DNA of 64,000 bases from an uncultured Verrucomicrobiae bacterium (GCA_963731265.1 CAVSUE010000001.1:1888001-1952000); one strand, 5' to 3'; shown: positions 18,338 to 19,538, numbered from the stretch's first letter. Made by a program: numbers and translations. The notes: generated from the letters alone by a model not told the origin.

Positions 18338-18539
18338 GAAACCTTTTAGAAAAAAAATTGTTCAGGAGAATAAAGAGACATTTCCCCTTATGTTCAAGGA
18401 TGCCTCGAAGAGATTAACTTTTCAATCTTTTTGCTATCTTAGTAAAGGAGGAGCTGCTTACAGTAGATTGCGGCGCACACTTGCCGGTCCGCGCCGCAAT
18501 AAGATCGCCTCTCCGCCGATCTGCCAATATTCAAAAAAA

Positions 18540-19538
18540 TCAATGGCTAGTGCCCAATGGCTGCCCCACTTCCGCAGGAACCCCAGGGGCGGCGCCAAAG
18601 CCGTGGAAGGGGAGGTCTTGTTCGTGGCTGATGTAGACGCCGGTCGTGACGGCGAACCCCCCAATGGTCGCTGGACCTTTCTCAGTACCAAACATAAACT
18701 CATCGGAGGTTCGTGAATAGTTCAAGCGATCCCCCTCTTTTTTATCTGGGCAAGTGCCCTTATTCAGAATATTGGTGACATTGTAGAACACTCGCGTGCT
18801 TAACTTGACAGGTACGTGCTCATTTTTGGCCAGTTCTTCTTTTTGTTGAACCCACCTCTTATTTTCAGTGCACTCTGGAAATTCTTTCCGCATCAAGGTG
18901 ACACGGACCTCTTTTGAGATTTTGTTGCACTGTTTCAACGCCTTGGGATCAAAATAACCAAAGACTTTGGTTTTGTGCTTATTGGTGACAGGATGCTCGC
19001 CACACACGTTCAAGTTCTTCAGAGAATAAGGAAACTGAACCCCTTGTTTTTTTAGCTCATCGATCTCTGCGTCTGTGTTGAAATCCCCTTCAGCTTTGAG
19101 AGCATTTATTAGAACCTCATTAACATCGTCCCTATAGATGCTTTCCGGTTCAACGACAAACACCCATGTCTCGCTCATCTTTTTTGTGGGATCATAAGGG
19201 TCCATAATAGTTCTAAAGACCTCAAATACCACCTGATCGACTTGAGGTACGATGCCGACGAACCTCCCTAAAGGAGCCATTTGTTTGGCGCTGTGGGTTC
19301 TGGGGTACATGAACTGGAAGTCTTCCTTTGCGGTGGCAACATCATGCCCTTCGATGCGGGGAATTGATTCAGCGTCAAACAAAGTAAACCAGATGCTGGG
19401 GTCTTGCATGGTGTTGTGCCATGCCTGACATACGTGGGTGCAAGGGATGACGCCGGCAAGCCCTGAGAATTGGGAGATACGACTCACAATGTCGACATAG
19501 ATAAAGGGGTCAAAAGAAGCATTTGTAATTTGTGACAT
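18540..19538 (-). CDS. F-box protein with C-terminal domain related to 13099..14148 (candidate effector)
   Basis: DIVSRISQF...CTHVCQAWHNTMQDPSIW F-box; C-terminal YSRTS...TIGGFAVTTGVYIS...GAA. Confidence 0.7.
   Translation of the reverse strand: MSQITNASFDPFIYVDIVSRISQFSGLAGVIPCTHVCQAWHNTMQDPSIWFTLFDAESIPRIEGHDVATAKEDFQFMYPRTHSAKQMAPLGRFVGIVPQVDQVVFEVFRTIMDPYDPTKKMSETWVFVVEPESIYRDDVNEVLINALKAEGDFNTDAEIDELKKQGVQFPYSLKNLNVCGEHPVTNKHKTKVFGYFDPKALKQCNKISKEVRVTLMRKEFPECTENKRWVQQKEELAKNEHVPVKLSTRVFYNVTNILNKGTCPDKKEGDRLNYSRTSDEFMFGTEKGPATIGGFAVTTGVYISHEQDLPFHGFGAAPGVPAEVGQPLGTSH

Follow-up and report, generated by a model that had tools for sequence, protein, structure and literature searches.

Why should two genes with divergent bodies carry the same short nucleotide motifs, in the same order and in different reading frames, at their 3' ends? 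The two, here gene 1 and gene 2, lie on the minus strand of a 64,000-nt stretch of DNA (the window) from an uncultured Verrucomicrobiae bacterium (GCA_963731265.1 CAVSUE010000001.1:1888001-1952000; genome G000). A sequence-only reading of the window had taken both for F-box genes and had proposed that the motifs form a cis-acting signal, like the initiation of mutagenic homing (IMH) sequence of a diversity-generating retroelement (DGR), marking a dispersed family of diversified effectors. The DGR parts considered here are a reverse transcriptase (RT), the Avd protein, a template repeat (TR) and the variable repeat (VR) of the target gene. With a probability of roughly 85%, both genes were once targets of a DGR and now stand orphaned and frozen, the retroelement being intact in sister genera and gone from this genome, which is that of a chlamydia-like bacterium.

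On the minus strand, both genes carry TTGGGGGxTxCGCC, a stretch of NNC-rich codons, GGCGCC, GCGGAAGT, CCATTGG and TTGATTTTTT(T)G in the same order, and each motif lies where the reading had placed it (Table 1). The pairing CCATTGG-N(5-15)-TTGATTTTTT is found at two sites in the window, where 100 shuffles lead one to expect 0.00. The full composite occurs twice in the 2.34-Mb, two-contig genome, at gene 1 and gene 2; GCGGAAGT on its own is not significant (3 matches, 1.97 expected). This octamer falls in CGG AAG TTC (R-K-F) in gene 1 and GCG GAA GTG (A-E-V) in gene 2, and the later motifs are non-coding in gene 1, CCATTGG and its successors lying beyond the TAA stop (13058-13098); both statements of the reading are borne out. 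The frame of GCGGAAGT shifts because the spacer between it and GGCGCC measures 8 nt in gene 1, whereas that of gene 2 has 15 nt, a difference of 7 nt. The same motif stands in another frame because the DNA is conserved, not the protein. A third exact TTGGGGGxTxCGCC (TTGGGGGATTCGCC) lies at C1:1847729-1847742 (-) of this genome, outside the mapped family genes.

Table 1. Features of gene 1, gene 2 and their 3' regions, in window positions.
Feature	Position	Strand	Details
Gene 1 (P0001), sole family-1 member in this genome	13099..14148	-	349 aa
Gene 1, putative fossil VR	13104..13191	-	nhmmer E 5.3e-16; colinear with the TR of relative G022
Gene 1, GC-rich 3' block GGCGCC..GCGGAAGT, apparent IMH-like relic	13104..13125	-	read G-A-G-G-R-R-K-F, then TAA stop
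Gene 1, non-coding putative target-flank relic	13058..13098	-	CTTGG, CCATTGG, TTGATTTTTTG
Gene 2 (P0002), F-box-like N-terminus and C-type-lectin/FGE-like domain	18540..19538	-	332 aa; open reading frame
Gene 2, F-box-like segment	19377..19451	-	aa 30-54; Pfam PF12937, E 0.0011, 19.1 bits, under the 24.3 cut-off
Gene 2, C-type-lectin/FGE-like domain	18552..19241	-	aa ~100-329; presumed former variable region at its C-terminal end
Gene 2, putative fossil VR, TTGGGGGGTTCGCC to GCGGAAGT	18568..18664	-	nhmmer E 2.8e-8; genome 1906568-1906664; colinear with active VRs
Gene 2, codons presumed formerly diversified	18597..18632	-	12 codons, 9 NNC
Gene 2, GC-rich 3' block GGCGCC..GCGGAAGT, IMH-like homolog	18568..18596	-	read G-A-A-P-G-V-P-A-E-V
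Gene 2, putative target-flank relic	18532..18560	-	CCATTGG, second CCATTG, stop TGA, T-run (TTGATTTTTTTG)
Hairpin 1	18502..18522	-	6-bp stem; DNA -7.0 kcal/mol, z -3.8
Hairpin 2	18467..18500	-	11-bp GC-rich stem; -14.9 kcal/mol, z -3.8
TTGGGGGxTxCGCC	gene 1 13174-13187; gene 2 18651-18664	-	converted from genome coordinates
GGCGCC	gene 1 13120-13125; gene 2 18591-18596	-	
GCGGAAGT	gene 1 13104-13111; gene 2 18568-18575	-	
CCATTGG..TTGATTTTTT	gene 1 13060-13085; gene 2 18534-18560	-	

Working DGRs of this kind are present in relatives. An RT search over 41 related genomes found a 350-aa RT (RVT_1, 74.2 bits) adjoining two family-1 genes in G022, which belongs to a different genus of the same family. 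The locus holds a family-1 target gene, the convergent RT, an Avd reading frame (NCBIfam NF033474, 88.2 bits, cut-off 80; Pfam bAvd, 70.9 bits, cut-off 40) and an inverted repeat of 83 nt, 90% complementary, which copies the 3' end of the target and reads ..GGLNVNNNYDNDNIGVGGLRK. Among 129 genomes of the family, 16 had RT matches at E<=1e-20, and 6 had a full or nearly full RT. These six (G022, G063, G080, G116, G110 and G109) share one cassette layout, with TR/VR pairs of 77-91 nt; in G110 the first 34 residues of the RT are in another frame. Adenine makes up 22.5% of the TRs, and 51 of the 53 substitutions across the six pairs fall at TR adenines (binomial p 8e-31), which are changed to G 18 times, to C 17 times and to T 16 times. 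RT, Avd and TR/VR pairs with adenine-specific changes are thus present in all six. In a seventh cassette (L075), from a Parachlamydiales metagenome-assembled genome, 5 of 5 mismatches read by eye in the printed arms are at TR adenines, and the target has a weak F-box-like match. G022 has a second VR on another contig with 7 of 8 mismatches at adenines, and therefore one template serves several genes. Database records place the relatives in Parachlamydiales, Parachlamydiaceae or Rhabdochlamydiaceae, and two in Verrucomicrobia. In the cassettes avd lies between TR and RT on the opposite strand to both (L047, L061-L065), so that a TR-RT transcript would be antisense to avd.

These cassettes also show where the shared octamer belongs. 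In six of six, the TR matches its VR through a GC-rich block that ends in ..GGAA, and the two part at the following base, which is G in the VR and A or C in the TR, so the boundary of TR/VR homology falls inside GCGGAAGT. Its equivalent is read (R)KF in five active targets and S-A-E-V in the target of G063. Nucleotides are therefore kept across frames in working cassettes, as expected if they serve template-target matching and not protein function. The G063 target aligns with the gene 2 family end to end, from the F-box to the last residues (hhalign 98.9%, E 1.2e-17, 298 columns), and has F-box-like Pfam matches over their cut-offs (30.5 and 22.1 bits).

The two window genes resemble these targets in two ways. 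First, they are the two best matches in the genome (E 5e-16 and 3e-8) to an nhmmer profile built from the six TR/VR pairs and the window genes' own two rows, the other family matches being paralogs; both carry, at the 3' end, a VR homologous to VRs that have adenine-mutated TR partners. Second, the codons before the GC-rich block are rich in NNC. Gene 1 has 8 NNC among its 12 variable codons (13126-13161). The NNC-rich stretch that the reading saw in gene 2, the 12 codons before G-A-A-P, stands out from a gene body with 30%. Across eight family-2 genes of this genome, 52 of 96 such codons are NNC against 600 of 2216 (27%) in the bodies, and across 33 family-1 genes 248 of 396 against 2778 of 10546 (26%); the count leaves out two family-2 genes that lack the anchor motif, both pseudogenes, a duplicate locus and an ortholog that is only partial. 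An NNC-rich patch is what AAC-templated mutagenesis leaves behind, and both genes have probably been diversified in the past.

The bodies of the two genes are divergent at the level of BLASTP (best E 0.18), but their families are homologous by profile comparison (hhalign 98.4%, E 8e-15, 225 columns), and on that evidence the two belong to one superfamily. Could plain paralogy and frameshifts, with no retroelement history, then explain the motifs as residual similarity of a duplicated C-terminus? The tail is indeed indel-prone, with stops and frames that vary among paralogs. The sequence-only reading had itself taken motifs confined to two genes, with no template or RT, as a sign of simple paralogy, and within this genome the search found exactly that: the composite at two genes only, and neither RT nor TR. 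Against paralogy, the block is homologous at the nucleotide level to VRs whose TR partners show adenine-specific changes, active cassettes conserve it in two frames, NNC codons are enriched, and RT remnants stand beside a gene 1 ortholog in G013 and a relative in G014. We hold plain paralogy to be extremely unlikely.

Do both genes encode F-box proteins with a diversifiable fold? The reading called both F-box genes, and this held better for gene 2, which has a sub-threshold Pfam match, than for gene 1, whose protein has no Pfam match, F-box included. Matches at the family level are clearer. PF12937 is matched by 21 of 23 family-2 members and an F-box-like Pfam entry by 6 of 21 family-1 members at E<=0.01, the best match in either family reaching E 2.6e-15. 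Against PDB sequences, the family-2 profile gave 16 matches with weak E values, all of them within its positions 16-66 at the N-terminus; 12 are named F-box proteins, 3 are KDM2A/B and 1 is the entry 1fs1. Most of the 21 matches of the family-1 profile, also weak, are eukaryotic F-box proteins or relatives. The AF2 model of gene 2 has a pLDDT of 87.7, with the last residues disordered (below 50 at 325-327 and 329-332). By fold comparison its domain appears to have a C-type-lectin/FGE fold, known DGR variable proteins being among the top matches; Foldseek against the PDB gave nothing at E<=0.001, and its weak top rows are C-type lectins. Gene 1 probably has the same fold, judging by profile homology to the gene 2 family. 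Purifying selection acts on the gene 2 body (dN/dS 0.30 for aa 1-285, compared with the ortholog in G003, the closest species).

Family 2 is dispersed in this genome, with 11 paralogous loci by tblastn making 12 family-2 loci with gene 2. One is disrupted and one frameshifted. The paralog at C1:1436486-1437241 (L022) keeps its first ~110 residues and is then transposase-like, with an IS630-type DDE motif seen by eye, and it looks like an insertion-disrupted copy. The paralog at C2:137316-138346 (L021), on the second contig, runs through two frames that overlap and is a frameshifted pseudogene.

If the genes are former targets, is the retroelement that served them still at work? The reading had left room for a system driven by a DGR today, and this part of it was not upheld. 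In G000 there is no DGR-type RT (0 RVT_1 candidates on the two contigs, 0 matches to the G022 RT). With the G022 proteins, tblastn against this genome reached best E values of 1.0 for RT and 2.4 for Avd, with no remnant of either. Searching the genome with both 3' regions by blastn returned paralog fragments only and no extra copy, and the TR/VR profile found no TR-like sequence, only family genes and a chance match. That match (C1:858239, E 0.19) was rejected as a TR, being inside a pheS-like gene. A scan for AAC/AAT-rich windows gave 145 positions, none of them flanked by VR-type blocks. A working DGR is extinct in this genome, from which RT, Avd and TR are each missing.

It might be argued that the DGR is still active on both genes, with RT, Avd and TR in the unassembled 4% of a genome that is 96% complete, on a separate replicon or in a co-resident element acting in trans. 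According to PMC5758913, the parts of a DGR can work in trans and reach targets far away, and the IMH-like block and flank are intact in both genes. Beyond the lack of an RT of any kind on the two contigs, the VRs themselves speak against present activity. The variable codons of gene 2 differ from those of G003 at 2 of 39 nt, and those of gene 1 at 1 of 36 nt, although overall identity is 93% and 96.5% and flanking DNA differs by 4-7%; the gene 2 octamer of G003 has already mutated to GCGGGAGT. Contigs from two sequencing runs of two studies (X1 and X4) share one VR haplotype, with 3 differences in 36 variable nt of gene 2. Runs X20 and X6 did not cover the VR and count neither way, and in no run were as many as half of the sampled words present. 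Among 19 genomes of the genus, G000 included, no uninterrupted RT of this lineage was found, only remnants. We consider continuing activity very unlikely, and return to former targets whose retroelement has been lost.

Convergent RT remnants lie downstream of the gene 1 ortholog in G013 (truncated, 191 aa, 59% identical to aa 131-346 of the G022 RT), of a family-2-like gene in G014 (70 aa) and of two family copies in G006. The G006 assembly (94% complete) has 20 family-1 matches on contigs C2 and C4 (L023-L029), many in tandem and with nearly identical VR flanks; G011 has 10. The 12-codon patches of the G006 copies are hypervariable and NNC-rich, two of the copies are followed by short remnants of an RT 3' end, and no RT was found in this assembly. 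The G013 ortholog (L003:682-2235) is 517 aa long and has a NADAR domain, absent from gene 1, inserted between its N-terminal region and its F-box-like part; Pfam NADAR is found in 2 of 21 family-1 members. A paralogous segment at C1:800429-800704 of this genome is 33% identical to the first ~95 residues of gene 1 (E 1.6e-8), and this N-terminal module seems to have been shuffled independently of the lectin part.

Several observations weigh against our interpretation. A cassette may have escaped assembly, and the Logan contigs used for the haplotype comparison hide rare or minority VR variants. The last 41 codons of gene 2 are not strictly frozen, with 9 non-synonymous changes and 1 synonymous change against G003, a ratio explained by selection or by a relaxed constraint. 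Because the genes are related and hence not independent, Fisher and Poisson p-values, such as the p of 5e-8 for NNC enrichment in family 2, overstate the case. Finally, the case for past diversification comes from homology and NNC composition, not from a TR/VR pair that the genes own. The G022 TR was considered as their template and rejected, as mismatches to it are mostly at non-adenines (16 of 25 for gene 1, 18 of 27 for gene 2).

The DNA beyond the VRs is also shared with active targets. Pentamers of the form [ACT]TTGG recur behind each of the six active VRs (24 in six stretches of 70 nt, with 1.8 expected at this genome's frequency) and none follow the six TRs. The CCATTGG of the window genes contains one such repeat, the gene 1 flank has three in 70 nt, and TTGATTTTTT also stands behind the active VRs of G063 and G116. 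These flank repeats may have a role in homing. The gene 1 flank includes a TGA in the frame of the gene, 10 codons after the TAA stop, and orthologs and paralogs retain the ending ..GG(R/Q)(R/W)KF. In G022 a GC-rich hairpin, with a stem of 10 bp and a loop of 4 nt, lies ~70 nt downstream (z -6.8). The two hairpins that the reading saw after gene 2 both fold, the longer with a stem of 11 bp rather than 10, and 0 of 200 shuffles fold as well for either.

The 3' block and the hairpins might have been kept for a function outside any DGR, such as termination, mRNA stability or gene-conversion tracts among paralogs. Hairpin 1 is kept behind several family-2 genes (in a six-copy alignment, 6 predicted pairs, 1 with a compensatory change), T-runs follow its equivalent in paralogs p2 and p5, and hairpin 1 is likely a remnant terminator. 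Gene 2 and paralog p4 share a 35-nt stretch at 91% identity, although their proteins are 48% identical. A terminator scan, on the other hand, did not call the gene 2 hairpins, and Rfam on 12500-20000 at E<=1 gave a chance miRNA match only. Both hairpins are deleted in a 96.6%-identical strain (707 nt; the X1 and X4 contigs), where 60 nt at window 18460-18521 are replaced by six other letters, and folding of the gene 1 flank gave no significant hairpin (z -1.05). A purpose of this kind has only a slim chance of being why the block was kept. Of the proposed IMH-like signal on a dispersed F-box family, a past role in a DGR is what relatives and lineage history support, and present activity in this genome is what they do not.

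We propose the following model for the former targets. In the ancestor, as in the sister genera, RT with Avd would copy the TR into cDNA, misincorporating at template adenines, and the cDNA would replace the last ~90 nt of the target gene. About a dozen AAC-templated codons would be randomised, hence NNC, on the binding surface of a C-type-lectin fold that follows an F-box-like N-terminus in one fusion protein. The GC-rich block that does not vary, GGCGxx..GGGG..C(G/T)GCGGAA, would be the 3' end of TR/VR homology, and the target-side flank would comprise the next G, the YTTGG/CCATTGG repeats, the T-run and the hairpin. The block may have been kept for template-target matching rather than for the residues it encodes, and a 7-nt indel inside it would put GCGGAAGT in different frames in the two subfamilies, both frames occurring in working cassettes. 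RT, Avd and TR would then have been lost here, leaving frozen variable regions and motifs that slowly decay as relics, and the genes would persist as intact reading frames, presumably with fixed specificity.

The targets for which DGRs are mainly known are the tail fibres of phages and proteins that lie at the surface or bind ligands. In the present family, the lectin-like module that is diversified is joined to an F-box-like domain. Like the BPP-1 DGR (Mtd, bRT, Avd, TR/VR and IMH; PMC5758913, PMC3240598), those of the relatives have RT, Avd, an adenine-specific TR, and a VR at the 3' end of a lectin-fold gene; homology ends at a GC-rich 3' boundary, and G022 has a GC-rich inverted repeat downstream. 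They differ in that the target has an F-box-like N-terminus, avd is on the opposite strand between TR and RT, the flank has YTTGG repeats and the hairpin is ~70 nt downstream instead of immediate; the window differs further in having no machinery. The TvpA DGR of Treponema denticola has seven further scattered targets (PMC5758913; structure 2y3c). TvpA is presumed to be a surface-binding protein, whereas here the scaffold is fused to an F-box-like module, which implies that it acts within the cell of a eukaryotic host.

Outside the family, the closest RTs are those of Patescibacteria (CPR; 42-49% identity), whose DGRs, like nanoarchaeal ones, were compared here; they have the same divergent avd-RT arrangement (L077-L094). 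The neighbours that a language model gives for the gene 2 domain are hypothetical proteins of CPR (score 0.94-0.95), which is a lead only. No F-box was seen at the CPR DGR loci, where tblastn with family proteins at E<=1e-3 detected no targets. LdtA of Legionella pneumophila is a surface lipoprotein that is not known to carry an F-box. Its DGR is a further case in an intracellular bacterium of protists, and PMC5758913 states the function of LdtA as undefined. The main text of that DGR survey has no mention of "F-box", "ubiquitin" or "Chlamydia". A full-text literature search for DGRs with chlamydia, F-box or effectors found no such system described. In the chlamydial F-box families, the F-box is reportedly paired with leucine-rich repeats, not with a lectin fold. 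The large lineage-specific F-box-like families here (12 family-2 loci, and 20 family-1 in G006) resemble the F-box/BTB expansions of environmental chlamydiae (PMC4209131), a paper whose main text is without the terms retroelement, reverse transcriptase, hypervariable and C-type lectin.

The remainder of the window offers less of note. Between the two genes lies a 1245-aa reading frame (14600-18337, -) with SNF2-type helicase motifs at its end, seen by eye. Rfam on the whole window at gathering score found an RNase P RNA (26038-26385, +, 224 bits) and a tRNA (59698-59780, -), both ordinary and unrelated.

The organism shows marks of an obligate intracellular lifestyle. Five matches to nucleotide transporter (TLC) genes were found in G000, of which one is interrupted by an internal stop and another is only a short fragment, and control genomes have none (0 of 14). 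The active targets at L062:183-1379 (G080) and L047:372-1412 (G022) start with a long hydrophobic stretch, bilobed in G080, which we take to resemble that of chlamydial inclusion-membrane proteins. If the G080-type target is inclusion-membrane-like, its F-box and lectin module would stand on the host-cytosol side of the inclusion.

An effector or Skp1-binding function of the family is suggested by its F-box-like domain. If the F-box engages host Skp1, an adaptor of host ubiquitin ligases would here undergo targeted hypermutation, as a natural library of degraders. It is tempting to go further, to a picture that we offer tentatively and think somewhat doubtful. In this chlamydia-like family the DGR may hypermutate the substrate-binding face of F-box adaptors in the host cytosol, a self-renewing library that would point host SCF ubiquitin ligases at new targets. 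The paralog arrays, 12 here and 20 in G006, might then be frozen snapshots, and the YTTGG/CCATTGG repeats a new DGR target-recognition element. What the window documents is the remains of a dead DGR: intact genes with a patch rich in NNC codons, an IMH-like block that can be read in either frame, and repeats in the flank. Such a signature could be used to find extinct DGR targets in genomes without a reverse transcriptase, and may possibly explain the expansion of some effector families.

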